Shown here piece by piece: positions 6,867 to 30,538 of a stretch of DNA of 64,000 bases. Source of the DNA: Methanobacteriota archaeon. Lineage in GTDB: Archaea > Thermoplasmatota > Thermoplasmata > UBA10834. Numbering within the stretch: position 1 is the first letter of the stretch; each line of letters opens with the position of its first letter. Both the position numbers and the translations under genes were made by a program. The notes beneath the pieces were generated by a model, which worked only from the letters and a program-made list of their open reading frames with translations, was not told where the DNA came from and made no database searches. The stretch covers positions 861,216 to 925,215 of the forward strand of contig CP070732.1 in assembly GCA_020347565.1 (NCBI GenBank). Reading direction: 5' to 3'.

Positions 6867-7502
6867 ATGAGCGATGGTAGAACGGTTCTGGTCCTGGCAC
6901 CGCACACCGACGATGGTGAACTGGGCTGCGGGGGCACCATAGCGAAGGAGGTCGAGCGCGGCAGCGAGGTTATCTACGTGGCGTTCTCGTCCGCAGACAG
7001 GTCGCTTCCCGAAGGCTATCCGAAAGGCACGCTCAAAAAGGAGCTGACATGCGCCACCAAGGTGCTGGGCGTGCGGAAGGACCATGTGGTGTGCTACGAT
7101 TACGACGTCAGGAACTTCCACGTCAAGCGCCAGGACATACTGGATGAAATGCTCAGGCTCCGGGAGGAGTACGGCCCCACCGTCGTCTTCGCTCCCTCGC
7201 TGAACGACCTCCACCAGGACCACAAGATAGTCGCCGAGGAGGCGAGGCGCATGTTCAAGCGGACATCGATCCTCGGCTACGAGATGCCCTGGAACAACAT
7301 CAGCTTCGACACGCTCTCCTTCTCCGTCCTGGAGAAGAGGCACGTGGACCAAAAGGTCGAGGCGCTGAAATGCTATGAGAGCCAACGCCACAGGGCCTAC
7401 CTGAACAGCGATTTCATCAACAGCTTGGCGCTCGCCAGGGGAGTCCAGGTATCGGTCCCCTACGCCGAGGCGTTCGAGGTCGTACGGTGGATAATGCCAT
7501 GA
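6867..7502 (+). CDS. PIG-L/LmbE-family N-acetylglucosaminyl deacetylase
   Basis: The protein has the VLVLAPHTDDGELGCGGTIAK motif, the PIG-L signature HPDDxE region. Its stop overlaps the next start (ATGA). Confidence 0.75.
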   Translation: MSDGRTVLVLAPHTDDGELGCGGTIAKEVERGSEVIYVAFSSADRSLPEGYPKGTLKKELTCATKVLGVRKDHVVCYDYDVRNFHVKRQDILDEMLRLREEYGPTVVFAPSLNDLHQDHKIVAEEARRMFKRTSILGYEMPWNNISFDTLSFSVLEKRHVDQKVEALKCYESQRHRAYLNSDFINSLALARGVQVSVPYAEAFEVVRWIMP

Positions 7503-8581
7503 GCAGCGAAGCCCTGGGACGCGTCTCAGTACTGGTCACCGCCGTCGGGGCGCCCGGCGCGGCGGGCATCATCAGCGCGCTTCGCAGGAACGGCGAGCGC
7601 GAGACTTCCGTGTTCGGCGTGGACATGAACTCCCAGGCTTCGGGAAAGGCATTGGTGGACGGCTTCTCGAAGGTGCCGAAGGGCAACGACCCCGGGTTCA
7701 TCGATGATATCATCGACGCAAGCCACGAGTTCGATGTCGGCGTGATCCTCCCGCTCTCTACGGAGGAGCTTCTGGCCTTCGCGTCCGCGAAGGACCGCAT
7801 ACGCGAATCGACAGGCGCCGTCACAGTGGTGAGCGCGAAGGACGCGATCGCCGCATCCAACGAGAAGGGTAAGCTGTTCACTAGACTGGCGTCGGCCGGG
7901 GTGCCAGTGCCGGAACACTCCGTCGTGCGGTCGCCCGCGCAGCTGAGGCGGGCGTGCGCCGAGCTTGGCCACCCTGGCCTCCCGGTCTGCATGAAACCGT
8001 CGTTCGCCCACGGCGGCAGGGGGTTCAGGGTCATCGAGGACTCGGCACCGACGGACGATACACTGCTCAGGCGGAAGCCCGAGAGCGCGTCGATATCCCT
8101 CGTCGAGGCGGAGCGACTGCTCGCGGGCCTGGAGAGCCCTCCAGAGATGCTCGTGATGGAGTTCCTTCCCGGTCGGGAGTACAGCGTCGACCTGCTCTGT
8201 TCGAAGGGCGAGATGCTCGTGGCGATACCGAGGTCGAGGGACGAGATACGGTCGGGCATAAGCTTCCGGGGAACCGTAGTCGACCGCGACGACGCGGTCG
8301 ACGTCTGCCGCAGGGTTTGCGATACGATGGAGTTCGACGGGCCCATCGGGGTGCAGTTTCGCGAGGACAGGGATGGCGCGCTCAAGGTGCTGGAGATCAA
8401 CCCTCGTCTGCACGGCAGCGTCGCGCTGTCGGTCGCTGCCGGCGTGAACGTGCCGTATCTGGCCGTCAAGGGTGCGCTGAACGAGCCGTTTGACATCCCA
8501 CCCATCAGGTACGGCACGACGATGACCAGGTACTGGGGTGCGACCTTCCATGACAAGGATGGACTTCCACATACACTCTGA
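7499..8581 (+). CDS. ATP-grasp domain protein (carbamoyl-phosphate-synthase-like carboxylate-amine ligase fold)
   Basis: A glycine-rich N-terminal domain is followed by a typical ATP-grasp core (…CMKPSFAHGGRGFRVIED…LVMEFLPGREYSVDLL…EINPRLHGS). The ATG at 7499 overlaps the PIG-L stop (ATGA). Confidence 0.65.
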   Translation: MSSEALGRVSVLVTAVGAPGAAGIISALRRNGERETSVFGVDMNSQASGKALVDGFSKVPKGNDPGFIDDIIDASHEFDVGVILPLSTEELLAFASAKDRIRESTGAVTVVSAKDAIAASNEKGKLFTRLASAGVPVPEHSVVRSPAQLRRACAELGHPGLPVCMKPSFAHGGRGFRVIEDSAPTDDTLLRRKPESASISLVEAERLLAGLESPPEMLVMEFLPGREYSVDLLCSKGEMLVAIPRSRDEIRSGISFRGTVVDRDDAVDVCRRVCDTMEFDGPIGVQFREDRDGALKVLEINPRLHGSVALSVAAGVNVPYLAVKGALNEPFDIPPIRYGTTMTRYWGATFHDKDGLPHTL

Positions 8582-15969: not shown

Positions 15970-17088
15970 TTGCCCAAGAGGAAATCATCTGCAGAGGGGA
16001 AGCCCACCTTCGCCGTATTGGGGGCGGGACACGGAGGTCTCGCCATGGCGGGGCACCTCGCGCTCATGGGCTTTCCCACGCACCTGTGGAACCGGTCGAA
16101 GGAGAAGATCGACCACGTGGAGGACCGAGGCGGCATCGACGTCATGGGTGTGGTCGAGGGCTTCGGCAGGCTCGAGCTGGCCACGGCGGACATGAAGGAG
16201 GCGCTGAGCGGGGCGGACATCGTAATGATCGTCGTCCCGGCTTCCGGTCACAAGGACGTAGCCGAGAAGTGCGCGAGGCATCTCAAGCAGGGGCAGCACG
16301 TGGTGCTCAACCCGGGAAGGACTTTCGGCGCCCTGGAGTTCCTCCAGACGCTTCGGAACAAGGGTGTCAGGGGACCGTCCACCGTCTCCGAGGCGCAGAC
16401 CTTCATATACGTTTCGAGGCACACGGACTTCGCCAGCTCTCACATCATGCAGATCAAGAACTCGGTCGCGATGGCCACGATACCTGCGCACAGGACGCCG
16501 AAGGTGCTGAAGGTTGTTACCAGGGCGTTCCCCCAGTTCGTGCCTGCGAGCAACGTGCTGGAGACGAGCCTGGACAACGTCGGCGCGGTCTTCCATCCGA
16601 CCCTCACGCTGCTGAACGCCACGAGGATCGAGTCGACGCATGGCGACTTCGAATACTATCTGGAGGGCGTAACACCGTCGACCGCGAGGATCCTCGAGGC
16701 CGCTGACGCCGAGAGGGTGGCCCTTGGAACGGCGCTCGGCGTGAGGCTGCACACCGCCCGGGAGTGGCTCTACCTGTCCTACGACTCGCCCGGCAGAACG
16801 CTCTACGAGGCCATACAGGCCACACCCGGATACAAGGGCGTGCGGGCCCCGGCTACCCTGACGCACAGGTACATCCTCGAGGACGTCCCGATGAGCATAG
16901 TGCCGATGGTCTCCGTCGGCCGTCAGCTCGGTGTCGAGACGCCGACGCTCGCATCCCTCGTGAACCTGGCCTCGCTGATACACGACAACGATTTCTGGAA
17001 GTCCGGCCGTACGGCTGAGCGGGTGGGGCTGGCCGGAAGGTCGGTGAAGGACATCAGGCTCCTCGCCGTGGAGGGGGCGCGCTCATGA
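15970..17088 (+). CDS. Opine (octopine/nopaline) dehydrogenase-family NAD(P)-dependent oxidoreductase
   Basis: A TTG start is followed by an N-terminal KPTFAVLGAGHGGLAMAGHLALMGFPTHLWNRS Rossmann motif. The ~370-aa length and the C-terminal helical domain are typical of the opine-DH family (the same family as CntM/ODH). A strong GAGGGGGG Shine-Dalgarno lies 10 nt upstream. Confidence 0.65.
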   Translation: MPKRKSSAEGKPTFAVLGAGHGGLAMAGHLALMGFPTHLWNRSKEKIDHVEDRGGIDVMGVVEGFGRLELATADMKEALSGADIVMIVVPASGHKDVAEKCARHLKQGQHVVLNPGRTFGALEFLQTLRNKGVRGPSTVSEAQTFIYVSRHTDFASSHIMQIKNSVAMATIPAHRTPKVLKVVTRAFPQFVPASNVLETSLDNVGAVFHPTLTLLNATRIESTHGDFEYYLEGVTPSTARILEAADAERVALGTALGVRLHTAREWLYLSYDSPGRTLYEAIQATPGYKGVRAPATLTHRYILEDVPMSIVPMVSVGRQLGVETPTLASLVNLASLIHDNDFWKSGRTAERVGLAGRSVKDIRLLAVEGARS

Positions 17089-18743
17089 GGGTGCTTGCAG
17101 CATCCGTTGGCAACTGCGTGCACGTCGCGGGGGTGCAGGCGTTCCTCGACGTGGCCCGGTCTTTCGGCTACGAGACCGTGTTCCTCGGCCCCGCCATGCC
17201 GATCGACAAGCTCACAGGGGCGATAAAGCAGCACGAGCCCGACCTGGTAGCGCTCAGCTACAGACTCAGCGAGGAGAGCGCCAAGGCCGTGTTCGAAGAC
17301 CTGAGGAAGGCGCTCGACAGCAACCCGGACATCGCCGGGAAGAGGTTCCTGTTCGGCGGGACACCGCCCGTCGCCCGACTTGCGCGCGAGTCGGGCATGT
17401 TCGAAGCGGCTTTCGACGGTAGCGAGCCCTTGGAGGTGACGATGGCCGTCCTCAGGGGCAGCGCGGCCGCCCAGGAGGACAGGGTCATGGGCGATACGCT
17501 GATGACACGTCTGCAGACGAACCATCCCTTCCCGCTCATCAGACATCACTTCGGTCAGCCGGACCTTCAGGAGACCATCGACGGCGTGCGGAGGCTGGCT
17601 GAGAGCGGCGCCCTTGACGTCATATCTATCGCCCCTGACCAGAACGCCCAGGAGTCGTTCTTCCGCCCAGACGAGATGGATTCCTCGCTCGCGGGTGCCG
17701 GAGGGGTGCCTCTGAGATCGCAGGACGACCTTGAGGCCCTGTACCAGGCCGCGCAGACGGGCAACAAGCCGTTGCTCAGGTGCTACAGCGGCACGAGGGA
17801 TCTCATCAAATGGGGTGGGATGCTCAAGGAGACCATCAAGGTCGCGTGGGGCGCCGTCCCACTGACATGGTACAGCGAACTGGACAGCAGGTCGAAGCGC
17901 CCGTTGCTGGATGCGATCAAGGAGAACCAGAAGGCCATCAGATGGTATGCGAAGAACGACATCCCGGTGGAAGTGAACGAGTCGCACCAGTGGGCCCTCA
18001 GGAGATCCGGCGACACAGTCGAGCTCGCGACCGCGTATCTTGCGGCGCACAACGCCAAAGCGCTTGGCGTGAGGAACTACGTGTGCCAGTTCATGTTCGA
18101 CACACCGAGGGGAATCTCGCCGGCTATGGACCTCGCGAAGATGTTCGCCAAGCTTGACCTCGTCGAGTCGCTCTCCGACGTCAACTTCAACGTCATCAGG
18201 ATGGTCCGTTCAGGACTGTCGTCATTGTCACCAAAGCCCAACCTCGCCAAGGGACAGCTCGCGGCGTCGATATACTCCGCAATGGCGCTCAAGCCACACA
18301 TAGTCCACGTCGTGGGCTACTCAGAGGCCGACCATGTCGCCACCGCCGACGAGATAGTGGAGAGCTGCGAGCTCGCCAACGGTGTCATCAGGAAGGCTCT
18401 GCTGGGGGTTCCGACGCCCGAGACCGACCCCGCTGTGGCGGAGCGAAAGGCCCAGCTCCTGGCGGATGCCCGGTTCCTGATCGAGGCCATCAAACGCCTC
18501 GAACAGGTGAACACCCACGACCCCCTCATAAGGCCGGAGGTCATCGCGACGGCGATAAAGGAGGGAATCCTGGACGCCCCTGACCTGAGGGGCAGCAGGG
18601 TTGCGAGGGGACGGATCACGACTGCGATGGTCAACGGGGCCTGTGTCCCCGTCGACAGCGCCACCGGCAGGGCGCTATCCGAGAAGGAGAGGATCGACGA
18701 GATAGCCATAAGCGAGAAGGACTTGGACCTGGCGGAGATATAG
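17085..18743 (+). CDS. Glutamate-mutase-like fusion protein: N-terminal GlmS-like B12-binding Rossmann domain (variant C-x-H-x-x-G motif) plus ~420-aa C-terminal domain (possibly GlmE-like TIM barrel)
   Basis: The N-terminus RVLAASVGNCVHVAGVQAF...LGPAMP...PDLVALSYRL...FLFGGTPP aligns to the GlmS sequence IVLGVIGSDCHAVGNKIL...SSLYG...LLYVGGN as I recall it. The remainder has weak, order-consistent resemblance to GlmE, also judged from my memory of that sequence. The start overlaps the opine-DH stop (ATGA). Confidence 0.45.
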   Translation: MRVLAASVGNCVHVAGVQAFLDVARSFGYETVFLGPAMPIDKLTGAIKQHEPDLVALSYRLSEESAKAVFEDLRKALDSNPDIAGKRFLFGGTPPVARLARESGMFEAAFDGSEPLEVTMAVLRGSAAAQEDRVMGDTLMTRLQTNHPFPLIRHHFGQPDLQETIDGVRRLAESGALDVISIAPDQNAQESFFRPDEMDSSLAGAGGVPLRSQDDLEALYQAAQTGNKPLLRCYSGTRDLIKWGGMLKETIKVAWGAVPLTWYSELDSRSKRPLLDAIKENQKAIRWYAKNDIPVEVNESHQWALRRSGDTVELATAYLAAHNAKALGVRNYVCQFMFDTPRGISPAMDLAKMFAKLDLVESLSDVNFNVIRMVRSGLSSLSPKPNLAKGQLAASIYSAMALKPHIVHVVGYSEADHVATADEIVESCELANGVIRKALLGVPTPETDPAVAERKAQLLADARFLIEAIKRLEQVNTHDPLIRPEVIATAIKEGILDAPDLRGSRVARGRITTAMVNGACVPVDSATGRALSEKERIDEIAISEKDLDLAEI

Positions 18744-18775: not shown

Positions 18776-20248
18776 ATGGAAGGAATAGCCGGTACGTACG
18801 GACACGAAGACTGTGCCCTGGTAGGCAGAATGCTGAGGAAGCTGAGGCATCGCGGGCCGGGCAGGAAGAGGATCCACGCCGACGACGGCCTCGTGCTCGG
18901 CGCGCGGGCGGCGGTCACGGATTCGGCCGTGAGGAACACCCCGATGGCGGAGAGGGACGGCGTTGTCGTCGCCAGCGACTCGTACATATTCAACAGGCAG
19001 GCGCTCCGAACGGCGTTCGCCCCCGAGGCGAGTGCCGCCGCGTCCGATGCCGAGCTCCTTCTGGGCATGTACGAGGACCTCGGGACCGACATGTTCGGAT
19101 ACATCGACGGCGCCTATGCCGTCGCCATCGCGGACGGACGGAAGACCGTGCTGGCCAGGGACAGGTACGGCATCAAGCCGCTCTACCTCTCGGGCGGCGT
19201 GAGGAGGGGTACCTTCTCGTCCGAGATGAAGTCGCAGCTGCTCGCCAAGCAGGACTTCATACCGTTCCCGCCAGGCAAGGTCATGGTCAAGGGCAAGGGC
19301 GTGACGCCTGTGAGACAGAAGACGACCTACGTCGCCCGAGTGGCCGGTGACGCCGGCGCGAAGGCGCTGAGGTCGACGCTGATGGGGGCTACCCAGGCGG
19401 CTCTCGAGGACGGTGACAGGGCGAACATACTCCTGAGCGGAGGCGTGGACAGCAGCGCTATCGCTGCTGCGGCGTCCTGCCTTACGGACGACATCGACAC
19501 CGTGTGCGTCGCCTACGAGGGTGGGACCGACGCGGACATGGCTAGGAAGGTCTCCGAAGAGCTGGGAACGGACCACAGGGAGAGGGAGTACGAGGAGGAC
19601 GAGATGCTCGACCTGCTGGACGAGGTCGTCTACTCGGCCGAGACTTTCGACTACCCGCTGGTGAGGAGCTGCATACCAAACTACATAGCAACCCACTCGT
19701 TCCCCGATAGGGACAGGATAACGCTGTGCGGCGAGGGGGGCGACGAAGTGTTCGCAGGGTACGACTACATGCGGGAGATCGCTGACGATGGCCGGCTGCG
19801 CCGCGAGAGGAAGCTCCTGCTCCGCGCAGGCCACCTGACCGGCTTCCACAGGGTCGACAGGATGACGTCGTCGGCGTCGCTCGACGGCAGGATGCCGATT
19901 ATGAGCAGGTCCGTCGTCGACCTAGGCCTTGGAATGAGCAGGAGCGCAATCCTCGGGAGTGACATCAGCGAGAGCAAGCTGGCGCTGAGGAAGGCGTTCG
20001 CCGACATGCTGCCCGATGAGGTCGTCACGAGGGAGAAGAAGCGCTTCAGCGACGGTGCGGGCTCCCTCACAGCGCTCGTCAGGAGGGCAGAGAGCTTGAT
20101 ATCGGACGCCGAGTTCGACAGGGAGCGCACGGCGTTGCCTGGGGACAGGATACGTACGAAGGAAGAGCTTCTGTATTACAGGACCTTCGCTAAGCACTTC
20201 GACTCGCCGAGCGCGACCAGAGCCGTTGGCTTCACGCCGAGGCCTTGA
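18776..20248 (+). CDS. Asparagine synthetase (AsnB)-family protein with degenerate N-terminal glutaminase domain (Cys2 replaced by Glu)
   Basis: The N-terminus is MEGIAG...LRHRGPG..., against canonical MCGI(A/F)G...HRGPD. The PP-loop ILLSGGVDSS is intact. Length is 490 aa. Confidence 0.75.
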   Translation: MEGIAGTYGHEDCALVGRMLRKLRHRGPGRKRIHADDGLVLGARAAVTDSAVRNTPMAERDGVVVASDSYIFNRQALRTAFAPEASAAASDAELLLGMYEDLGTDMFGYIDGAYAVAIADGRKTVLARDRYGIKPLYLSGGVRRGTFSSEMKSQLLAKQDFIPFPPGKVMVKGKGVTPVRQKTTYVARVAGDAGAKALRSTLMGATQAALEDGDRANILLSGGVDSSAIAAAASCLTDDIDTVCVAYEGGTDADMARKVSEELGTDHREREYEEDEMLDLLDEVVYSAETFDYPLVRSCIPNYIATHSFPDRDRITLCGEGGDEVFAGYDYMREIADDGRLRRERKLLLRAGHLTGFHRVDRMTSSASLDGRMPIMSRSVVDLGLGMSRSAILGSDISESKLALRKAFADMLPDEVVTREKKRFSDGAGSLTALVRRAESLISDAEFDRERTALPGDRIRTKEELLYYRTFAKHFDSPSATRAVGFTPRP

Positions 20249-20336: not shown

Positions 20337-21257
20337 TTGAAGATATCGAAGAACGTCGCTTATGTCCTGATGGGGCTGGCGGCGCTTGCATGGGCTACGT
20401 CGGGCACGCTCACCGTGCTCGCCATAGACGAAGGGGCGACGGCGAACGTCATAGCCCTGTACTCGGAGATATTCAGCGTTGCCATGTTCTTCACCGCAAT
20501 ACTAATCATAGACCGACGCGCCTTCATGATTCGCCGGGCGGACTTCATCCCGTTCCTGCTGTTCAGCACGGTGACGGGGGCGCTTTTCTCGGTGGCATGG
20601 TACCACTGCATCGACCTCACTTCGGTGACTACCGCTGTTGTACTGCTGTGCTCGTATCCTAGCATAGTCACAGTGGCCTCGATATTCCTCCTCGGTGAGA
20701 GGATGACTGCCGCGAAGGCGGTTGCTCTGCCGACGACGTTCATCGGATGCGTCTTCGTTGCCGAGGCTTACGACGTCGAGGCGATTCGTGTCAACGCGCT
20801 CGGTATCGCGCTCGGCGTCTTCACCGCGTTCTGCGCCGCCGCGTACTACATCTGGGGCAAGAAGTTCCTGAAGCTGTACTCGCCGTATACCGTCGCGCTG
20901 TACTTCTCCGGCCTCATGCTGCCCGCGCTGGTGATACTGACCAACCCTGCGAAGTCGCTCCTCCCCAGCCTGTCGCCAACCGCCTGGCTGATCGTATTCC
21001 TCATAGGGCTCATACCCTGCACTGTCGGGTTCTTCATATCGATGGTCGCCCTTAAGCGCATAGAGGCCAGCAAGGCCAGCATCGTGGCCAGTCTAGAGCC
21101 GGTGATGGCTGTCGCGCTGGCGGTCATCATAGTGTCCGAGGCGGTCGGCGGGCTCCAGATGGTCGGTGTCGCGCTCGTCATCGTGGGCATACTGACCCTG
21201 CGCTTGGTGAGACGAGAGGATGAGGACGCCCCGGTCGAGGCGCCGGCGAAGAGATAA
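20337..21257 (+). CDS. EamA/DMT-superfamily transporter (10 predicted TM helices)
   Basis: The protein has two EamA-type repeats of hydrophobic helices. A TTG start has GAGAGGG 9 nt upstream. An alternative ATG lies at 20370. Confidence 0.75.
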   Translation: MKISKNVAYVLMGLAALAWATSGTLTVLAIDEGATANVIALYSEIFSVAMFFTAILIIDRRAFMIRRADFIPFLLFSTVTGALFSVAWYHCIDLTSVTTAVVLLCSYPSIVTVASIFLLGERMTAAKAVALPTTFIGCVFVAEAYDVEAIRVNALGIALGVFTAFCAAAYYIWGKKFLKLYSPYTVALYFSGLMLPALVILTNPAKSLLPSLSPTAWLIVFLIGLIPCTVGFFISMVALKRIEASKASIVASLEPVMAVALAVIIVSEAVGGLQMVGVALVIVGILTLRLVRREDEDAPVEAPAKR

Positions 21258-21330
21258 TCTCTTCGACGCGTCGGAAGGGTGGAAGGCAAACGGCATATAC
21301 GCATGCCGGCATCAGGTCAAGCAGAGTTCG

Positions 21331-22083
21331 ATGATCGTCACGCGCGTGCCTAGCGGCATTCCGGGCCTGGACACGGCGCTCCAGGGAGGCATACCCGTCA
21401 ACTCCGCACTGGCCCTCAGGGGCGAGGCGTCGAACTACTGCGAGGCTTTTCAGCAGCAGTTCGTGGTTGAGGGGCTGAAGCACGGTTCTCCAGCGATATA
21501 CTGCTGCACTTCCCGCCCGGTCGCGACCATAATAAGGAGCATGAGGCACCAAGGGTTCGACGTCAAGGAGTACATCGTCAACGACGAGCTGGTCTTCCTC
21601 GACTGCTACTCCGCCCACAAGCGAACTTCGGTCGCGGGCGTCGACAGCGACGTTCAGAGGAAGATAATAACCGTCTCGGACGCCGACGACGAGAAGATGC
21701 TCCAGAACGGTCTCGCCACGGCCGTCGAGAGGGTGCCAAACATCAAGGGCGTCAGGGCGGTGTGCGAGAACGTTCCAGGATCGCTCACGAATAAATCGCC
21801 GACCGAGATGATGAGATGGGGCAGGAGATCGTTCGGCGACCTGCGCGCCTTCCAGACGATCGTGCTCCACACGTTCCCCCACGGCGTACGCGAGGAGCTG
21901 TTCACGATGATGGCTTCCGACTTCGACGGCCTGTTCGAGCTCAAGGCGGAGAGAGGGCTCGATCGCGTGAGGTACTACCTCAGCATACCGAAAATGAGGA
22001 TGACCGTTCTGCCGCCTAAGATGCACGAACTCGACATCAACAACGGCGTCGTCACGCTGAAGACGATACAGAAGATCACATGA
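21331..22083 (+). CDS. KaiC/RecA-superfamily-like protein with degenerate Walker A (pseudo-ATPase)
   Basis: The N-terminus has the VPSGIPGLDTALQGGIPVNSALALRGEASNYCEAF motif. The KaiC-type GIPGLD..L.GG.P motif is kept, but the P-loop GxxGxGK(T/S) is replaced by RGEASNY. Confidence 0.5.
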   Translation: MIVTRVPSGIPGLDTALQGGIPVNSALALRGEASNYCEAFQQQFVVEGLKHGSPAIYCCTSRPVATIIRSMRHQGFDVKEYIVNDELVFLDCYSAHKRTSVAGVDSDVQRKIITVSDADDEKMLQNGLATAVERVPNIKGVRAVCENVPGSLTNKSPTEMMRWGRRSFGDLRAFQTIVLHTFPHGVREELFTMMASDFDGLFELKAERGLDRVRYYLSIPKMRMTVLPPKMHELDINNGVVTLKTIQKIT

Positions 22084-23236: not shown

Positions 23237-23842
23237 ATGGCCAAGGCCGAGAGCAAAGATGCTGATTGGTTCGCTGCGCTCGACGAAGAGCTCGAGAAGA
23301 AGACCCTGGAGGTCACGGACAACACCGTCGAGCAGAACACGCAGAAGGTCGCAGTCAACAGGAGCCTCTTGGAGGACTTCTTCAGGATATGGTCCAGGTT
23401 CAACAAGATCAACGTTCACTACAGCATGGCACCCGAGAACTCGACATTCGCCCAGTTCGTGGTGTACCCCGAGGAATGGAACTTCAAGCCCGACTTCGAC
23501 TTCCTTGGCGTGGACAACGTCGCCCTCACGGACAGGACACAGGGGAGGGTCGGCGACTCCATCAAGGCGTGGTACTACAGTATCGACAGCAAGATGCACA
23601 TAAGGATGGTGTTCGAGTACTGCGAGGGGGAGCACTATTACAAGTATGCCGGTTGGAAGAGGATCTTCAGCCAGTACGTGCTGCTAGATGTGCCCGTCGG
23701 CAAGTTCGACCTCAAGAAGTACCATGAGATGCTCGCCAACACGGTGAAGGTGTGGTACGAGTCGCATCTGAGGAAGGACAGGGACATCATACTCAAGCAC
23801 ATACGGGACAAGTACGAAAAGGGCGAGACTTTCACGCAGTAG
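23237..23842 (+). CDS. Hypothetical protein (201 aa)
   Basis: The ORF has genome-typical codon usage. An AT-rich 'aaatgtatatatgcac' TATA box lies ~45 nt upstream. No motif was recognised. Confidence 0.45.
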   Translation: MAKAESKDADWFAALDEELEKKTLEVTDNTVEQNTQKVAVNRSLLEDFFRIWSRFNKINVHYSMAPENSTFAQFVVYPEEWNFKPDFDFLGVDNVALTDRTQGRVGDSIKAWYYSIDSKMHIRMVFEYCEGEHYYKYAGWKRIFSQYVLLDVPVGKFDLKKYHEMLANTVKVWYESHLRKDRDIILKHIRDKYEKGETFTQ

Positions 23843-23879: not shown

Positions 23880-24518
23880 TCAGCCGCGGGCCCCCTTGAT
23901 CAGCGTCCTGGACACCACACCGCCCACCACGGTCAGGTCCTCCGTGGGCAGTATCTTCGCAGCGCTCGCGTCGTACAGAATGCTCGCTGAGGCAGACACC
24001 TCGGAGTCACCGAGCCAGAGTATCACGGCCACTGGCAGCCTGTCGAAGAAACGGACCTTCACGCCGACTGTACCCACCTCCAACGGTTCAGCGTTCAGCT
24101 TGGCCGCCACACGCCTCAGGCGCTCCGGGCTGAGCCCGAACTCCTCGACCAGTGGGTCAATGGTCCTCGCCTTGAAGGCCGGGTAATACAGCGCCCCGCC
24201 TGACAGCTCGCGGAAGGAGATGAGGCGGTCGGTCAGCTGCGTCTTGGTCGCCCCGGCGAGGTAGTGCAGTATCAACACCTGAAGGAACCTGGGGACCTCG
24301 GGGCCACCCAAATCGCTGTACGTGACCGCCTTCCCGCTCAGGTCAACGAAGCACTCGTCGTTGAGCATGGCAAGGCGGAGAACTGAAGGTCTGCCGTCGA
24401 CGACCGCGCCGAGGTCCTCTGCCAGCTGCCGAGGGTCCAGTTCTTCCAGGGCGGCCCACGCGAGCTCAAGCGCGTCCGTCAAGGGCGCCTTTCTGCCCGA
24501 TCCGACCCGCACCGTCAT
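23880..24518 (-). CDS. Conserved hypothetical protein co-transcribed with acsE (possibly DUF3786-family, acs-cluster associated)
   Basis: The 212-aa protein has a start that overlaps the acsE stop (ATGA). The family assignment comes from my recollection that DUF3786 genes accompany acs operons. It was not verified. Confidence 0.45.
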   Translation of the reverse strand: MTVRVGSGRKAPLTDALELAWAALEELDPRQLAEDLGAVVDGRPSVLRLAMLNDECFVDLSGKAVTYSDLGGPEVPRFLQVLILHYLAGATKTQLTDRLISFRELSGGALYYPAFKARTIDPLVEEFGLSPERLRRVAAKLNAEPLEVGTVGVKVRFFDRLPVAVILWLGDSEVSASASILYDASAAKILPTEDLTVVGGVVSRTLIKGARG

Positions 24519-25291
24519 GCCCTCAGGAACGAAGGCGCGTAGAGCTTCCTGTTGAGGAGCACCTCCGCCGCCTTCACCACCTTCATGAGCTCGGCGTCGT
24601 TAGGGTCCACGATCGCCGCATCTAGGCCCCTCCCGAGCAGCATGGCGAGATATGTCCGGTTCAGCAGCGACCGCTCCTCCGCGCCGCTCGAGACGTTGCT
24701 GAGACCGACTACAGTCTTGGGCGACGGGTCGTTGAGCGTTCTGAAGGATGTTATCGCGTCGCATACGTCGGGGCACTGGCTCTGGGCGGCCGATATCGGC
24801 AGCACAACCGGGTCGAGGTACACCTTCTCCGGAGGTATGCCCTGGTCCATGGCCGTCGCGAGCAACAACATGGCAATCTCCGTACGCCCCTCCGCGGAGT
24901 TCGGTATGCCCTTCTCATCGATGGTGAGACAGACTATCTCGGCGTTATGCTCCTTCGCCAGTGGGAAGAACTTCTCCATGCGCTTCTGCTCTGCCGTGGT
25001 CGAGTTGATCAGGGGCTCGCGGTTGCACGCAGACAGCCCGGCCGTCTGCGTCTTGAGCCCGGGTGAGTCTATGCAAAGCTTGACGTCGGCCACGTCCTGG
25101 ATCGTCTTGACGAGCCACGCGATGGCCTCCTGGGCGTCGTCCCTTCCCGGACCGGTGTTGACGTCCAGCACGTCCGCGCCGCCCTCGATTTGCTCGTTCG
25201 CAAGTCCCTGGATGTACTTCTCGTCGCGATCGTCTATGGCCTTCGCGACCTGTGGGAACTGACCGTTGATCCTCTCGCCTATCACTATCAT
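24515..25291 (-). CDS. acsE: Methyltetrahydrofolate:corrinoid/iron-sulfur protein Co-methyltransferase (pterin-binding, DHPS-like)
   Basis: The protein reads MIVIGERINGQF...GADVLDVN...LCIDSP...INSTTAEQ...FPLAKEH...DPVVLPISAAQ...VGLSNVS...RTYLAMLLGRGLDAAIVDP. This is co-linear with Moorella AcsE (MLIIGERINGMF...LDLNVG...LCLDST...NSTNAERE...). Length is 258 aa. Confidence 0.9.
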   Translation of the reverse strand: MIVIGERINGQFPQVAKAIDDRDEKYIQGLANEQIEGGADVLDVNTGPGRDDAQEAIAWLVKTIQDVADVKLCIDSPGLKTQTAGLSACNREPLINSTTAEQKRMEKFFPLAKEHNAEIVCLTIDEKGIPNSAEGRTEIAMLLLATAMDQGIPPEKVYLDPVVLPISAAQSQCPDVCDAITSFRTLNDPSPKTVVGLSNVSSGAEERSLLNRTYLAMLLGRGLDAAIVDPNDAELMKVVKAAEVLLNRKLYAPSFLRA

Positions 25292-25427
25292 CTCTCAACC
25301 CCCGCCAATGGTTGTTTGAAGGCCATACACCGTTAGTCTGATATCAATCATTCGGCTCTCCGCGAAGCGCCTGGGACAGCACAACAGTTAATACCGATGC
25401 TAATCGATTGCTGGACGCTGGTCTCGG

Positions 25428-27338
25428 ATGTCTGGTGAGGAGGAGGGGACCCTTTGCACGGTGAGTTTCTCACCTGACGGCGTCGCCGTCGAGATGGTCA
25501 GAGGCACTACCATCCTCGAGGCCTGCAGAGCCGCTGGCATAGCCATAGACGCTGTCTGCGGAGGCACCGGCAAATGCGGCAGATGCAAGGTAAGGCCGAA
25601 GGGGCTTTTCGACCCCGGAGACACCTCCGCCCTCGCCGAGGAAGAACGGGAGTCCGGCGTGGTCCTGGCGTGCGAGACGTTGGTGACCGGCGACCTCGAA
25701 GTGGAGGTGCTGCCGCGCTCAAGGATACGCGAGCATCAAATCCTGACCAGGACGCTGGAGACGCCGGTCGTCAAGCTGTCGCCCTGGGTCAGGAAGGTTC
25801 TGCTGGAGCTCCCGAAGGCCACCCTCTACGACAACACGGCGGATTTCGAGAGGGTCCTGCGAGCGCTAGGCGATAGGAACCTCGAGATGCCCATAGTCAC
25901 GCTCCGCAACATGTCGAACGTCCTGCGGGAAGGCGGGTGGACCGTGACGGCGACGGTGGCCGACCTGAAGAGCAGAGGCGAGATAACGCGTCTCGAGCCC
26001 GGGGACAAGTGCGGCTGCCTCCTGGGGGTCGCGATCGACATCGGCACGACGACGGTCGTCGGGCAGCTTATCGACCTGCTGACGGGCGATGTGCTCGCCA
26101 GCGCATCCGAGTACAACAGGCAGATATCCAAGGGCGAGGACGTCATCGCGAGGATGATGTACGGCGAGGAGAACGGCGTTGGGGAGCTGACGGACCTCGC
26201 GAGAGAGACTGTCAACTCGGTCATCGGCAGGCTGCTGGAGGACACGTCGAAGGAGCGGGAGTGTCCCGTCACCGCCGTCGACGTCGTCGGTGCGGCCATC
26301 GCCGGCAACACGATAATGACGCACTTCTTCGTAGGCGTCGATACGCGCTTCATACGGCTCGAGCCGTACGTTCCCGTAGCCCATCACATGCCGCCGCGCA
26401 GCGGCCATGACCTCGGCATGGAGGCTCACCCATCCAGCGATGTGCTCCTGTTCCCGTCGAGGGCGGGCTACCTCGGCGGAGATGTCGTGGCAGACGTGCT
26501 CGCGAGCGGCATTCACAGGAGCGACGACCTCGCGATGCTGATAGACGTGGGCACCAACGGCGAAATCGTCCTCGGGTGCAGGGAGTGGCTCGTGTCCTGC
26601 GCGTGCTCCGCCGGGCCTGCGTTCGAGGGCGGGGAGGTGTCGTCCGGCATGAGGGCCATGCATGGCGCGATAGACAGCATACGCGTCAACCACGACTTCG
26701 CAACCTCGTACCATGTAATAGGCGATGAGCGGCCGAACGGCATCTGCGGGTCCGGGCTAATAGACCTGATCGCGGAGATGTACGAGAACGGCGTGATAGA
26801 CCGCAAAGCTCGGATACAGCGGCTCCAGACGGACAGGGTAAGGGAGGGCGAGGAAGGGCTGGAGTACGTCGTCGAGTTCCAAGGGAGCCTCGGCGAGGGC
26901 GCGACCGGTGACCTCGTCATAACCGACGCCGACCTGCAGAACGTCCTCAGGACGAAGGCCGCGATCTTCGGCGCAGCGACGGTCCTGCTCAGGAAGATGA
27001 GCGAAGACCTGGACGGCATCGACACGTTTGTGATCGCCGGGGGGTTCGGCAACCACCTCGACATAGACCGCGCCGTCTCTATCGGTATGTTCCCTGACAT
27101 ACCAAGGGACAAGTACAGGTTCATAGGCAACGGGGCCCTCGAGGGCGCGAGGCTCGCTCTGCTCTCAGAGGAGATGCGGAAGGACATGGTGGAGATATTC
27201 GACCAGATGACGTACATCGAGCTGAGCGTGGACAACGACTTCTACGACGAGTTCACCTCCTCGATGTTCATACCGCACACGGATCTCGCGAAGTTCCCCA
27301 GCTTCAAAGACAGAGGGTCACAGGAGACGGCGAGATGA
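25428..27338 (+). CDS. Reductive activator of corrinoid protein (RACo/AcsV): N-terminal [2Fe-2S] ferredoxin + ASKHA ATPase (DUF4445)
   Basis: The N-terminus carries plant-type ferredoxin cysteines (CGGTGKCGRCKV...C). The ~630-aa length matches RACo. The ATPase-like middle and C-terminus and the location inside the acs cluster also fit. Confidence 0.8.
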   Translation: MSGEEEGTLCTVSFSPDGVAVEMVRGTTILEACRAAGIAIDAVCGGTGKCGRCKVRPKGLFDPGDTSALAEEERESGVVLACETLVTGDLEVEVLPRSRIREHQILTRTLETPVVKLSPWVRKVLLELPKATLYDNTADFERVLRALGDRNLEMPIVTLRNMSNVLREGGWTVTATVADLKSRGEITRLEPGDKCGCLLGVAIDIGTTTVVGQLIDLLTGDVLASASEYNRQISKGEDVIARMMYGEENGVGELTDLARETVNSVIGRLLEDTSKERECPVTAVDVVGAAIAGNTIMTHFFVGVDTRFIRLEPYVPVAHHMPPRSGHDLGMEAHPSSDVLLFPSRAGYLGGDVVADVLASGIHRSDDLAMLIDVGTNGEIVLGCREWLVSCACSAGPAFEGGEVSSGMRAMHGAIDSIRVNHDFATSYHVIGDERPNGICGSGLIDLIAEMYENGVIDRKARIQRLQTDRVREGEEGLEYVVEFQGSLGEGATGDLVITDADLQNVLRTKAAIFGAATVLLRKMSEDLDGIDTFVIAGGFGNHLDIDRAVSIGMFPDIPRDKYRFIGNGALEGARLALLSEEMRKDMVEIFDQMTYIELSVDNDFYDEFTSSMFIPHTDLAKFPSFKDRGSQETAR

Positions 27339-28093
27339 ACTCGTTCACCATAGCGGTAGCAGGCAAGGGCGGCGTAGGCAAGACGACCTTCGCCGCGCTT
27401 GCGATAAGGCACCTTCATCACATCACGGGTGAGGTGATATTGGCCGTCGACGCCGATCCCAACGCCAACCTGCACGCGAAGCTCGGGACATCGCCGAGGA
27501 GGACCATCGGCGACATCAGGGAGGAGCTGCTCGTTGAGGCGGACCAGCTGCCTTCAGGAGTTACGAAGCAGGAGCATGTCGACTACCAGATACGGCTGGC
27601 GCTGGCTGAGGGCGACGGGTTCGACCTCCTGACGATGGGGAGGCAGGAGGGGCCTGGATGCTACTGCTATGTGAACAACATCCTCAGGACCTTCGTTGAC
27701 TCCCTATCCGAGAGATACGCTTACGTTGTAATAGACAACGAGGCGGGGATGGAGCACCTCAGCAGGAGGACGACGAGGACCTCGGACGTCCTGTTCGTCG
27801 TCTCCGACGCGTCGAAAGCAGCGGCGGACTCCGCGGTCAGAATCGCGGCGTTGGCAAAGGAAATGGATCTGGGCATAGGTAGGACCGCCCTGGTAAGGAA
27901 CATGCTCCCCCCCGACTCGGACGGGCAGGATGCGCCAGCGGGCTTCGATGCCGCATACGCCGTGACGGCCTCCGCGGCCATACGCTCCGGGAGCATGCGG
28001 AGCGAGTCCCTCCTCGACATACCCCAGCACGACCCCACATATCAGGACATATCGAAGGCCTTGGACGAGGAGAGAAAGCTGGCAAGGCAATGA
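27335..28093 (+). CDS. cooC: CO dehydrogenase/ACS nickel-insertion accessory ATPase CooC/AcsF (MinD/ParA family)
   Basis: The protein begins MNSFTIAVAGKGGVGKTT and has the LAVDADPNANL and CYCYVNNIL (CxC) motifs of CooC. The ATGA overlaps the RACo stop. Confidence 0.85.
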   Translation: MNSFTIAVAGKGGVGKTTFAALAIRHLHHITGEVILAVDADPNANLHAKLGTSPRRTIGDIREELLVEADQLPSGVTKQEHVDYQIRLALAEGDGFDLLTMGRQEGPGCYCYVNNILRTFVDSLSERYAYVVIDNEAGMEHLSRRTTRTSDVLFVVSDASKAAADSAVRIAALAKEMDLGIGRTALVRNMLPPDSDGQDAPAGFDAAYAVTASAAIRSGSMRSESLLDIPQHDPTYQDISKALDEERKLARQ

Positions 28094-28236
28094 CGCAGAC
28101 GTCGATCCGAACAGAAGTGACGTCGCGAGCATCCTGACGCTCGTCCGGCAGCGGGGACGGGCTGACTGGGCGCCTCAAGGTCCCGCAGGGGGCAATGGAA
28201 ACGCACGCACCAACGGTTTCCGTGCCGTGAACGGCT

Positions 28237-29562
28237 TCATGCCAGAGACTTCATCATCTTCGGCAGCCCGGACGACTCCCTCGGCCCGACGGTCACCTTG
28301 AGGTCGGTCAGCTCGTTCAGCTTGCCGCTCATTCTGCTAACCATGCCCGGGATGATGATCTCGTTCCTGTTGCTCTTCTCCTTGACCTTGAAGTCGTCCA
28401 CCGCCTTGGCTACCGACTCCGGCGTCATCTTGCCAGCGGCGAAAGCCGTCATGACGGACTGTCCCTCGGTATCCACCACGAGTAGCCACGCGGGCACCTT
28501 GCTCTTCTCTATGTCCGCACGCACGGTGAAGTACGTCAGCGAGAAGTTCGTGGTGAACATGACAGGCGACGACTCCGTCGGCTCGCCGACTGGGTACAGC
28601 CCTGGCTTGACCTGGATGGGCACTTGCGGGTCGGTGTATATGTTCTGTCTCAGGGCGAGGAGCGGATACACGAAATCCCTCGGCATCTCCTCCATCATGA
28701 TGGCGGATGCGTACTTCATCACGCCCAGTGAGGCATTCATCTTGTCCGCGGTCGACGACCCGAGCACCGCAATCGTCGGGAAGCCGAGCGGCCTGAATTT
28801 GCTCTTTATCGCGGCCCGGCGTATCACCGTCATGTTCTCAAGCATCTTCCCGGAGCTGTCGATCGGCGGCTCGAGGAGCACGTCGCTCAACCCGGCCTTC
28901 TTGGCTCGCTCCGACAGCTCGACGAGTTCGTCCAGGCCGGCGACACCACCTACCACGAGCGGGAGCGACCGGCCCTTCGCGAGTTCCGCCATCGCATCGA
29001 AGTTCGCGCCTGTCGCGCGGTAGAGCAACGGCTTCTTGTCGGCGCACGCATCCGCCGCCTTCGCCGCCAGCGCAGCGTCCTCGCACATCAGCACGATGGG
29101 AAGCTCCTTGCCTGCCGCGGCCTTGACGGCCTCGAGGTAGTCCTCCTCGCTTCCGGACGAGTGCCGCAGGGCCACGGAGTCCACGCGCAGGATCTGACCC
29201 ACCCGCTCGAACGCCGCGGAATGGGCGTCATCGACCCTGGTCCGCATCGCCTCGAGTCCTGCGGAATCGTCGGCTATCAGGCCCAGCACGGTGGGGTTGT
29301 AGAAGGTCTTGTCGTGTCTGAACAGCTGCGTCTCGTCCCCCATCTTGACCGCCAGCTCGCCCGAGCCGATCGTGACGGAGCGGATCGGCGGAGCACCGCT
29401 CTCCTCGAGCTGAGCCTTCGCCTCATCGCTGACGGACGGACAGGCCTCGAGGGACACTTTCTGGTTGGCCAGCTGCATAGCGAATGCGAGGCAGGTTGGA
29501 AACTTGCACTCTCCGCAGTTCGTCTTCGGGAGCAGTTTGTAGATCTCCATCGCAGTCGGCAT
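28237..29562 (-). CDS. acsC: Corrinoid iron-sulfur protein large subunit (AcsC/CdhE)
   Basis: The N-terminus is MEIYKLLPKTNCGECKFPTCLAFAMQLA, the [4Fe-4S] motif of the CFeSP large subunit. A TIM-barrel and B12-binding C-terminus follow. A GGAGG Shine-Dalgarno lies inside the acsD 3' end, with a 1-nt gap. Confidence 0.88.
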   Translation of the reverse strand: MPTAMEIYKLLPKTNCGECKFPTCLAFAMQLANQKVSLEACPSVSDEAKAQLEESGAPPIRSVTIGSGELAVKMGDETQLFRHDKTFYNPTVLGLIADDSAGLEAMRTRVDDAHSAAFERVGQILRVDSVALRHSSGSEEDYLEAVKAAAGKELPIVLMCEDAALAAKAADACADKKPLLYRATGANFDAMAELAKGRSLPLVVGGVAGLDELVELSERAKKAGLSDVLLEPPIDSSGKMLENMTVIRRAAIKSKFRPLGFPTIAVLGSSTADKMNASLGVMKYASAIMMEEMPRDFVYPLLALRQNIYTDPQVPIQVKPGLYPVGEPTESSPVMFTTNFSLTYFTVRADIEKSKVPAWLLVVDTEGQSVMTAFAAGKMTPESVAKAVDDFKVKEKSNRNEIIIPGMVSRMSGKLNELTDLKVTVGPRESSGLPKMMKSLA

Positions 29563-29563
29563 C

Positions 29564-30517
29564 TCACTCGCCTCCTGCCAGGGATTTGAGCGTATCCCTC
29601 AGCATCTTCACCGATTCGGGATGGCGCATCACCACGATGCCCGCCCCGGCTACCGCCGCCGAGAGAGCTGTGATCGTCTCCCAGTATATCCCGCGCATCT
29701 TCACGTCGCCGTGCTCCGGATTCTCCTCCAACGCCTCCGGCACGGTCCACGCGCACGAGCAGTCGCATATCATGGGCATCTGCAGCACGGGATCGCCAGA
29801 CAGCGCCCCGAGTCGCAGGCGTTCGATGTTCGAGTAGGAGTATTCCAATCCCATGCCGAGCGGCGCCATGAGCGGGTCCATGAGGATGTTCTCCGGTTTC
29901 ATGCCGAAGTCGAGCAGCAGGATGTTCATCTGCTTCGCAAGGTTGATGTCCAGGTTGGAGAACGCCACGATACCGTGGCCGTTCGCCATCGACGCGGCAG
30001 CGAGAGACTTGTATGCCTTCTCCTCGGCGAGCCCGAGAAACAGCCGCTCGCCCTTGGCAACGTTGGACACCTTCTCCATGACCTTCGCGTCCTTCTCCTC
30101 GAACCCGCACCCGTAAACTGCGAGCGGTAAAGCGGTCGTCTGAAGCACCTTCGACACGAGCGCCTCGAGCTCCTCAGCGGGCCTGTCCTCCTCCTCCGGA
30201 TTTGCGGATGCAAGCTTGAGGACGCACATATCCGCGCCCCACTCGGCCTCGCACTTCTTGGCCCATCCTGCTGGGTCGGCAAGCGACGGCCCCATCGTCT
30301 CCTGAAGACGCTCAGGCACCATCCGCATCGTGTCAACGACGTCCATCGCGACCAGCGGCATGGGCCCCGACTCCCCCTCGAACAGATGGAAGGGAAGGCC
30401 GTTCGACCCTCCCGCGACGAGCTTGGCGCGCCTGGTTCCCCCGTATTCCTTGGTCGCGCCTATCGCGACCTCCTTGATCCGTCCTCCAAACTTCTCCTTT
30501 GGCACTTCAAATCCCAA
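29564..30517 (-). CDS. acsD: Corrinoid iron-sulfur protein small subunit (AcsD/CdhD)
   Basis: The 317-aa TIM-barrel protein sits immediately upstream of acsC and downstream of the CODH/ACS gene. The start is TTG with AGGGGGA upstream. Confidence 0.85.
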   Translation of the reverse strand: MGFEVPKEKFGGRIKEVAIGATKEYGGTRRAKLVAGGSNGLPFHLFEGESGPMPLVAMDVVDTMRMVPERLQETMGPSLADPAGWAKKCEAEWGADMCVLKLASANPEEEDRPAEELEALVSKVLQTTALPLAVYGCGFEEKDAKVMEKVSNVAKGERLFLGLAEEKAYKSLAAASMANGHGIVAFSNLDINLAKQMNILLLDFGMKPENILMDPLMAPLGMGLEYSYSNIERLRLGALSGDPVLQMPMICDCSCAWTVPEALEENPEHGDVKMRGIYWETITALSAAVAGAGIVVMRHPESVKMLRDTLKSLAGGE

Positions 30518-30538
30518 GTCAGAATCCCCCTGCTAACC

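Follow-up and report, generated by a model that had tools for sequence, protein, structure and literature searches.

The window analysed here is a 64,000-nucleotide stretch of the genome of a Methanobacteriota archaeon (contig CP070732.1, positions 861,216 to 925,215 of the forward strand), and its subject is the protein encoded at 17085..18743, in which a B12-binding domain is fused to a catalytic barrel. The histidine-ligand motif of the B12-binding domain carries cysteine in place of the usual aspartate, and this cysteine is conserved throughout a clade that spans Archaea and many bacterial phyla. The best-supported reading of the protein is a single-chain adenosylcobalamin (AdoCbl)-dependent isomerase, probably a distinct family within the superfamily of GlmE, the aminomutases and the acyl-CoA mutases. 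Its gene is preceded by that of an opine dehydrogenase and often accompanied by that of an amide-forming enzyme; to the proposal that these enzymes would act together in a compatible-solute pathway linked to cyclic di-AMP (c-di-AMP) we give about even credence.

The fused protein: B12-binding domain and catalytic barrel

The gene and its product have the following features:
17085..18743, plus strand: B12 mutase-like protein, 552 aa, ATG start (open reading frame (ORF) and sequence reading)
17085..17459, plus strand: N-terminal B12-binding Rossmann domain, residues 1-125, without a preceding cap domain
17109..17132, plus strand: G-N-C-V-H-V-A-G motif (sequence, GlmS alignment, conservation, secondary structure of the model)
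17115-17117, plus strand: Cys11 codon TGC
17121-17123, plus strand: His13 codon CAC
17256..17267, plus strand: S58-Y59-R60-L61, counterpart of the canonical S-x-L (alignment to GlmS)
17355..17360, plus strand: G91-G92, the GG element of the B12-binding signature (invariant in the close-relative alignment; on the GG of GlmS)
17502..18404, plus strand: GlmE-type TIM barrel, about residues 140-440
18405..18743, plus strand: C-terminal helical and beta extension (residues 441-552) that can also be aligned with the C-terminus of GlmE (model, profile alignments)

The motif is encoded by GGC AAC TGC GTG CAC GTC GCG GGG, giving G9 N10 C11 V12 H13 V14 A15 G16. The aspartate of D-x-H-x-x-G that hydrogen-bonds the histidine is replaced by Cys11, and the histidine and glycine are retained. 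A first-pass annotation of this DNA had described this substitution by comparison with GlmS; the DNA and an alignment to the real protein bear it out. In a profile alignment to GlmS of E. coli O157 Sakai (ECs_0764), C11 falls on Asp14, H13 on His16 and G16 on Gly19, and G91-G92 fall on the GG of LLYVGGN; the register first proposed, including the pairing of FLFGGTPP (residues 89-96) with LLYVGGN, was correct. S58 and G91-G92 are conserved and aligned to pocket elements of GlmS, while the canonical Leu position of S-x-L is occupied by Arg60. The SYRL element is kept in both Cys-type and Asp-type clades and may reflect a different lower-ligand base or tail contact. Neither the presumptive ligand H13 nor G16 varies within the close family, and over the two clades their conservation is at least 90%. 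In an AlphaFold2 model (mean pLDDT 86, pTM 0.73), the Cys-His motif occupies the loop that joins strand 1 (residues 2-8) to helix 1 (residues 15-26).

The Pfam model PF02310 (B12-binding) matches residues 2-96 with 34.6 bits against a gathering score of 32.1. A phmmer search of PDB sequences with the single protein gives only marginal matches for the B12 domain (E about 0.1) and none for the C-terminal domain. A 40-sequence family profile reaches solved corrinoid-binding domains (4jgi, E=1.2e-7; the mutase 2yxb, E=1.1e-5). Comparison by hhalign with single sequences has low probability (28% for GlmS, 21% for GlmE). A GlmS/MutS-like B12 domain at the N-terminus, as first proposed, is found by Pfam above threshold, by profile-profile alignment and by fold searches, and after proper alignment the motif still reads Cys, with no standard DxHxxG. 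A corrinoid protein of the methyltransferase type (MtaC, MetH) was rejected: there is no four-helix cap domain, and the barrel matches isomerases far better.

No Pfam or NCBIfam model covers the remaining 420 residues, in which a weak GlmE-like resemblance had been suspected. In the model, the Rossmann domain (1-125) is followed by a low-confidence linker, an eight-stranded barrel and a helical and beta C-terminal part. This C-terminal domain has the GlmE TIM-barrel fold: GlmE is the top match in two fold searches, at 14% identity. The fold-search figures are 26.5 for ornithine 4,5-aminomutase, 26.4 for lysine 5,6-aminomutase, 21.2 for 2-hydroxyisobutyryl-CoA mutase, 19.0 for methylmalonyl-CoA mutase, and about 15-18 for generic TIM barrels, methyltransferase barrels included. 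GlmE is not reached by sequence when the 40-sequence profile is run against PDB sequences; against a 16-sequence GlmE profile, the family profile aligns over the C-terminal half of the barrel only (E=5e-5, probability 67%). The suspected resemblance is upheld by both the fold searches and this profile alignment. Conserved barrel motifs are RHHFG (153-157), APDQNAQ (183-189), RCYSGT (232-237), WYSxLDxRS (262-270), ESHQW (299-303) and HVVGYSE (408-414). PF06368 (Met_asp_mut_E) does not match the window protein even at E<=0.1; its relatives P0135 and P0123 score 27.5 and 25.1 bits against a threshold of 26.6.

A forced global hhalign alignment (probability 45%) places PLLRCYSGTRD on PVQVRHGTPD, with R232 on GlmE Arg149; DVISIAPDQNAQ on DLLPTTIDAYTR, with Q189 on GlmE Arg100; and HVVGYSE on the K-x-P-H-E segment of GlmE, with E414 on E. 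coli GlmE Glu329. The regions around GlmE Arg66 and Glu171 are not reliably aligned. For the substrate-binding arginines of GlmE (Arg66, Arg100, Arg149) and Glu171 we follow the residue roles of the literature on 1ccw and 1i9c, and E. coli Glu329 is presumably Clostridium Glu330, by a count with an offset of one residue. Glu330 of glutamate mutase binds the adenosyl ribose hydroxyls, like Glu338 of ornithine aminomutase and Glu370 of methylmalonyl-CoA mutase (PMC4413051, PMC3958899). E414, at the position of this ribose-binding acidic residue, is at least 90% conserved in both clades.

Cysteine, aspartate and probable corrinoid use across the family

The family is large and widely distributed. 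A word-indexed search gives 5808 matches at E<=1e-3, an exhaustive search of 50%-identity representatives gives 750 clusters, and a scan of species-representative genomes confirms a mutase locus in at least 578 of them. Hosts are mainly fermentative anaerobes and include Thermoplasmata, Thorarchaeota, a Thermococci metagenome-assembled genome (MAG), Bacteroidales, Aminicenantes, Thermoanaerobacter, Caldanaerobacter and Tepidanaerobacter. Archaeal and bacterial orthologues are about 50% identical, and such identity across at least 578 species genomes argues for strong selection.

Within this family the cysteine is a subfamily trait. All 17 relatives with 53-76% identity keep G9, C11, H13 and G16 unchanged; as far down as about 37% identity, every relative reads [GS]x-C-[VI]-H-x-x-G; and all 102 Cys-clade sequences, from Archaea and many bacterial phyla, have the cysteine. 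The multiple alignment proposed at first as a check on C-x-H-x-x-G thus finds it conserved. In a set of 123 sequences, Cys occurs in 102 and Asp in 19; among 79 full-length orthologues from species genomes, 69 have C-x-H, two have D-x-H, and eight have an over-extended ORF start. A distant sister clade (600-635 aa, 25-38% identity) has the canonical D-[AP]-H-T-[LQ]-G. Within the close clade, Asp is carried by only two orthologues (L059, 6983-8632; L067, 5482-7131), which are 52-53% identical to the window protein and both read GNDVHVAG.

In a rough neighbour-joining (NJ) tree these two orthologues nest among Cys-type sequences, and the Cys-type protein P0187 groups with an Asp subclade. It seems that Asp and Cys replaced each other on more than one occasion while the other motif residues stayed as they were. 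Beyond position 11, the only B12-domain columns that split the two deep clades are 14 (V/T), 91 (G/A) and 93 (T/L), and a co-variation scan of the 123-sequence set found no other second-shell position that switches with Cys/Asp. Because the sister clade keeps DxHxxG and the nested orthologues have Asp again, the cysteine may be read as a working surrogate for aspartate. The literature searched contains no mention of the motif 'CxHxxG', and the Cys-for-Asp motif and its phylogenetic pattern appear to be new.

Some members differ in other respects. At positions 345-348 and 372 of the barrel, L059 and L067 also depart from every Cys-type sequence. P0141 (GDPKYTNE) and P0147 (GDGPRTGA) are full-length members without the motif Cys and His, possibly degenerate or B12-independent. 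P0135 is a mutase fused to a glutathione-synthetase/RimK-type ATP-grasp domain, and P0136 is fused, weakly, to a Peptidase_M15-like domain.

Genomic links to AdoCbl use are found in both Cys-type and Asp-type members. MutL/GlmL is the protein encoded between glmS and glmE. The Cys-type relatives P0150 and P0152 are fused to it (PF13941, 256 and 277 bits), and P0163 is a further natural fusion of this kind. A GlmL gene lies directly downstream of both Asp-type orthologues (L059 and L067), the only two among the 80 species-genome loci with this arrangement. These 80 loci come from a search seeded with the close (Cys-clade) alignment and are biased to the Cys clade. A CobA/BtuR ATP:corrinoid adenosyltransferase gene (PF02572, 208-221 bits) adjoins the dehydrogenase-mutase pair in the Cys-type loci L066 and L055; in L055, a Thermococci MAG locus, it stands upstream at 3304-3813. 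The Asp/Cys exchanges, the MutL fusions and CobA neighbours of Cys-type members, and the conserved Glu at the position of GlmE Glu330 together favour ordinary His-on AdoCbl catalysis, in which Cys would stand in for Asp. The first-pass annotation had left three options for the variant, namely a different corrinoid-binding mode, another cofactor or a non-catalytic protein; the exchanges among orthologues, the MutL and CobA links and E414 point elsewhere and favour none of them. Rfam scanning of 19 bacterial loci found no cobalamin riboswitch.

The host itself uses corrinoids, since genes for a corrinoid Fe-S protein, RACo and carbon monoxide dehydrogenase/acetyl-CoA synthase (CODH/ACS) lie in the window. 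This corrinoid machinery is encoded 5-15 kb from the mutase gene, in a Wood-Ljungdahl-type cluster at 24515-34675:
24515-25291, minus strand: pterin-binding methyltransferase
25428-27338, plus strand: RACo corrinoid activator
27335-28093, plus strand: CooC/CbiA-like ATPase
28237-29562 and 29564-30517, minus strand: two CdhD-family corrinoid Fe-S protein subunits
30539-34675, minus strand: 1378-aa ORF fusing a CODH (Prismane) domain to ACS domains

Operon partners and the c-di-AMP riboswitch

The genes around the mutase gene in the window are:
15970..17088, plus strand: opine dehydrogenase, 372 aa (PF02317 Octopine_DH, 167 bits)
18776..20248, plus strand: AsnB-like adenylating, amide-forming enzyme, 490 aa (PF00733, GATase_7, GATase_6)
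20337..21257, plus strand: EamA/DMT-family transporter (PF00892, 107 bits)
21220-22083: KaiC/RecA-superfamily ATPase, after the EamA gene, with synteny kept in L093, an 84%-identity relative
23237-23842: 201-aa ORF without Pfam match, following the KaiC/RecA-superfamily ATPase gene

The opine dehydrogenase is the most constant partner. It matches N-(1-D-carboxyethyl)-L-norvaline dehydrogenase (CENDH, 1bg6) over its full length (E=1e-78), and its TGA stop overlaps the ATG of the mutase gene in ATGA at 17085-17088. A homologue stands directly upstream of the mutase in 76 of the 80 species genomes, three of the other four loci being truncated, and the distant Asp-type relatives L008 and L009 also have one. 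When all neighbouring ORFs are clustered, only three recurrent families emerge: the mutase, the dehydrogenase and the AsnB-like protein.

The AsnB-like gene begins 32 nt downstream of the mutase in the window and occurs near the pair in 39 of the 80 loci. Its product matches E. coli AsnB (1ct9, E=1e-47), beta-lactam synthetase (1jgt, 4e-23) and carbapenam synthetase. The N-terminal Cys that serves as glutaminase nucleophile is missing in 33 of 37 AsnB-like proteins, including that of the window (MEGIAG); these partners (window 18776-18793; L014-L090) start M-[EQSAT]-G-I-A-G, not M-C-G-I. A dead glutaminase domain implies carboxylate adenylation followed by attack of a nucleophile other than glutamine-derived ammonia. 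In six loci a Ddl-type ATP-grasp ligase gene is present, besides the ATP-grasp fusion P0135.

Other neighbours are less regular. The EamA gene follows in only four close relatives (L013, L017, L019, L024), a loose association, and its product is possibly an exporter. In L055 a D-glutamate-cyclase-like gene (6989-8074; PF14336, 233 bits) lies between the mutase and AsnB-like genes, a possible hint at a glutamate-derived substrate. In L009 (407-13701) an Asp-type pair lies inside a glycan biosynthesis cluster with glycosyltransferases, an NDP-sugar epimerase, a DegT aminotransferase, a nucleotidyltransferase, a flippase and methyltransferases, and the distant Asp clade may decorate polysaccharide rather than make a free solute. 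In the window operon, neither a notable sigma-70-type promoter nor a notable intrinsic terminator was found, which is to be expected in an archaeon.

In bacteria, part of the family is under a known regulatory element. Rfam finds RF00379 c-di-AMP (ydaO-type) riboswitches directly upstream of the operon in 10 of the 80 loci, with 84-118 bits against a gathering score of 38. All ten lie on the coding strand ahead of the first gene; in nine the distance to the opine dehydrogenase gene is about 90-200 nt, and in L027 the riboswitch precedes an operon of AsnB-like, opine dehydrogenase and mutase genes. The genomes concerned include those of the cultured Caldanaerobacter subterraneus and Thermoanaerobacter thermocopriae. 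The positions within each locus are:
L077, 5654-5786: riboswitch
L084, 5659-5790: riboswitch
L086, 5659-5790: riboswitch
L050, 5595-5769: riboswitch
L061, 5663-5809: riboswitch
L088, 5598-5765: riboswitch
L091, 5609-5767: riboswitch
L080, 3737-3900: riboswitch
L078, 5487-5700: riboswitch
L027, 250-382: riboswitch

This riboswitch class is tied to cell-wall metabolism and to osmoprotectant synthesis and transport, and c-di-AMP represses K+ uptake genes through it (PMC7288161). A c-di-AMP riboswitch ahead of this operon is not mentioned in the literature searched, and the link appears to be new. In four loci a gene for an MscS channel lies within 5-160 nt of the pair and on its strand; three lie 5-38 nt downstream of the mutase and one just upstream of the dehydrogenase:
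L025, 8632-9291: MscS channel
L036, 8685-9743: MscS channel
L040, 2891-4060: MscS channel
L060, 4545-5708: MscS channel

Genes for a Na+/H+ exchanger and CLC proteins adjoin the pair in L031 and L004-L007.

Proposed pathway, alternatives and meaning

The proposed mechanism is as follows. The Rossmann domain most likely binds the corrinoid in base-off/His-on fashion through His13, and Cys11 would take over from Asp in hydrogen-bonding the His ligand and so tuning it. Both the adenosyl group (through Glu414) and a substrate with a carboxylate would be held in the TIM barrel. The co-translated opine dehydrogenase would make or cleave an N-(1-carboxyalkyl) amino acid, and the mutase would perform a radical 1,2-rearrangement on this compound or its precursor. 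In about half of the genomes, a carboxylate might then be converted to an amide by the glutaminase-less AsnB-like enzyme or by the Ddl-type ATP-grasp ligase. The purpose is most likely an unusual, metabolically inert compatible solute or K+ counter-ion, because bacterial operons stand behind c-di-AMP riboswitches and next to MscS channels; we infer this purpose from regulation and from neighbours in a minority of loci. A rearranged opine-type product, amidated where the AsnB-like enzyme occurs, would fit the logic of a compatible solute: its odd skeleton would escape catabolism, and amidation would remove charge.

A more complete version of this scheme, which we consider doubtful, would join the opine dehydrogenase, the Cys-His mutase and the AsnB-like enzyme with its dead glutaminase into a whole new c-di-AMP-controlled compatible-solute pathway with thiol-based tuning of the lower axial ligand. 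Reductive synthesis of an N-(1-carboxyalkyl) amino acid would be followed by a radical 1,2-shift and then by amidation or lactamisation. An example would be the shift of X-CH(CH3)-COO- to X-CH2-CH2-COO-, where X is the amino-acid nitrogen, formally the same as 3-methylaspartate to glutamate. The solute would be used by Thermoplasmata, Thorarchaeota and many anaerobic bacteria.

Several points weigh against the isomerase and compatible-solute interpretation. The riboswitch occurs in only 10 of the 80 loci, nine of them in Bacillota and one in Armatimonadota. Cell-wall genes are also among the targets of this riboswitch class, and AsnB-like and Ddl-like enzymes are typical of the cell wall too. 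MutL and CobA neighbours are rare, with two loci each plus the fusions, and the NJ tree behind the repeated Asp/Cys exchange carries no support values. With Arg in place of the S-x-L Leu, the pocket for the nucleotide tail could be out of the ordinary. Local alignment methods do not bring the N-terminal half of the barrel onto GlmE, and the putative R232/Arg149 and Q189/Arg100 equivalences come from the forced alignment at 45% probability.

A substantial alternative, although itself unlikely, keeps the same isomerase and opine dehydrogenase chemistry and makes it catabolic (fermentation of an amino acid or opine-like amine) or a source of an envelope or polysaccharide building block. The cell-wall targets of c-di-AMP riboswitches, the standing of AsnB-like and Ddl-type enzymes as classic peptidoglycan enzymes, the Asp-type pair in the L009 glycan cluster, the mostly fermentative anaerobic hosts and the 70 of 80 loci that have no riboswitch all speak for it. 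So does the precedent of lysine and ornithine fermentation, where the known B12 aminomutase pathways join the mutase to an amine dehydrogenase that uses NAD(P). PMC4413051 mentions DAPDH. However, the pair is common in Thermoplasmata and Thorarchaeota; of the nearby genes only those for the opine dehydrogenase and the AsnB-like protein are conserved, and neither a thiolase nor an ammonia-lyase nor any other enzyme for a catabolic next step recurs; and solute homeostasis is the better match for the neighbouring MscS, Na+/H+ exchanger and CLC genes. Thermoplasmata are, moreover, the class best known for wall-less organisms, which counts against an envelope role.

It is improbable that the cysteine alters cofactor use, whether by ligating cobalt (Cys-on), by acting as a redox or thiol switch for His-on binding, or by marking a non-corrinoid or non-catalytic domain. 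Cys in 102 of 102 clade members signals very strong purifying selection, a free thiol is stable in anaerobic hosts, the S-x-L Leu is replaced by Arg, P0141 and P0147 lack both Cys and His, and 'CxHxxG' was not found in the literature searched; we also know of no characterised B12 enzyme with Cys at this position. Yet the close Asp orthologues keep the rest of the motif (GNDVHVAG), which argues that the two residues do the same job, and the His, Gly, GG, predicted ribose-binding Glu, MutL fusions and CobA neighbours fit ordinary AdoCbl. No cluster of conserved Cys residues that could hold an Fe-S site is present. In the canonical fold (MetH, methylmalonyl-CoA mutase, GlmS), the residue two positions ahead of the His is found under the imidazole and not beside the cobalt, which opposes Cys-on ligation.

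A fused glutamate mutase (EC 5.4.99.1), interconverting glutamate and 3-methylaspartate, is very improbable. The top fold match to GlmE, the alignment of the B12 domain with GlmS, the MutL/GlmL fused or adjacent in some relatives and the D-glutamate-cyclase-like gene of the L055 operon are consistent with it. GlmS and GlmE (1cb7, 1ccw, 1i9c) are separate proteins, whereas the window protein is fused in S-then-E order, with 14% identity, Cys for Asp14 and, in the forced alignment, a conserved Gln at the Arg100 position. There is no PF06368 match at E=0.1, methylaspartate ammonia-lyase is absent from 92 related loci and the window, and tblastn finds no true GlmS and GlmE genes in any of the 80 loci; the partner is instead an opine dehydrogenase, which plays no part in the methylaspartate pathway. 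An orthologue of glutamate mutase was rejected on the PF06368 result, the identity, the claw arginine that is apparently Gln and the missing ammonia-lyase.

A pyridoxal 5'-phosphate (PLP)- and B12-dependent aminomutase of the OraSE or KamDE type is just as hard to credit, since in those enzymes the PLP Lys follows the ligating His by 11 residues (His133/Lys144 in lysine 5,6-aminomutase, His618/Lys629 in ornithine 4,5-aminomutase; PMC3958899), while the corresponding residue here is Ala24, invariant in the close family. On this ground a PLP aminomutase of known type was rejected; the domain order is also reversed relative to OraE, and no S or D subunit of OraS or KamD type occurs among the neighbours.

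A new family of proteins dependent on B12 was predicted from 11 bacterial genomes of four phyla (Zhang, Rodionov, Gelfand, Gladyshev, BMC Genomics 2009, 10:78; PMC2667541). Every member adjoined a pfam02317 gene, genes for D-Ala-D-Ala ligase and asparagine synthase lay in the neighbourhood, and no catalytic-domain fold, function or motif comment was given (PMC2667541). The window protein shares with it the distant N-terminal B12 domain, the immediately adjacent pfam02317 dehydrogenase, and asparagine synthase and/or D-Ala-D-Ala ligase nearby (39 of 80 loci AsnB-like, six Ddl-type); judged by these sequence features, it belongs to the predicted family. No later characterisation of that family was found in the literature searched. 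New relative to the 2009 description are the spread over at least 578 species, Archaea among them, the barrel of GlmE type, the Cys that replaces Asp together with its clade structure and the c-di-AMP riboswitch, as well as the missing AsnB nucleophile, the links with MutL and CobA and the count of 76 of 80 for opine dehydrogenase linkage.

Two known systems help to interpret the AsnB-like partner. Like beta-lactam and carbapenam synthetases, it has the AsnB fold with a dead glutaminase domain (Cys1 missing), and the substrate of beta-lactam synthetase is an N-(2-carboxyethyl) amino acid, which resembles an opine in being a dicarboxylate with a secondary amine. However, the AsnB-like protein is closer to E. 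coli AsnB (1e-47) than to 1jgt (4e-23), there is no sign of cyclisation, and free ammonia is equally possible as nucleophile. In the asnO-ngg pathway, an AsnB-like amidotransferase and an ATP-grasp ligase yield the amidated, charge-neutral solute N-acetylglutaminylglutamine amide (NAGGN). The window AsnB-like protein is below threshold for TIGR03104 (122 bits, cutoff 570), no GNAT or Ngg homologue is present here, and the core of B12 mutase and opine dehydrogenase has no counterpart in NAGGN synthesis.

About a dozen AdoCbl-dependent isomerase reactions are known, and in every characterised base-off/His-on enzyme known to us an acidic residue stands beside the ligating His; the present family, in at least 578 archaeal and bacterial species, uses Cys instead. 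It is approachable in cultured hosts (Caldanaerobacter subterraneus, Thermoanaerobacter thermocopriae, Tepidanaerobacter acetatoxydans, Fervidicola ferrireducens), the partner dehydrogenase is a close relative of a well-studied opine dehydrogenase, and the natural Asp revertants offer controls against which the role of the Cys can be judged. The c-di-AMP riboswitch points to osmotic or K+ stress as the condition in which the product should be sought. If the osmolyte reading is true, the c-di-AMP regulon would gain a biosynthetic output, a new B12-dependent reaction would be added, and anaerobes and archaea would have an additional reason for their corrinoid need.

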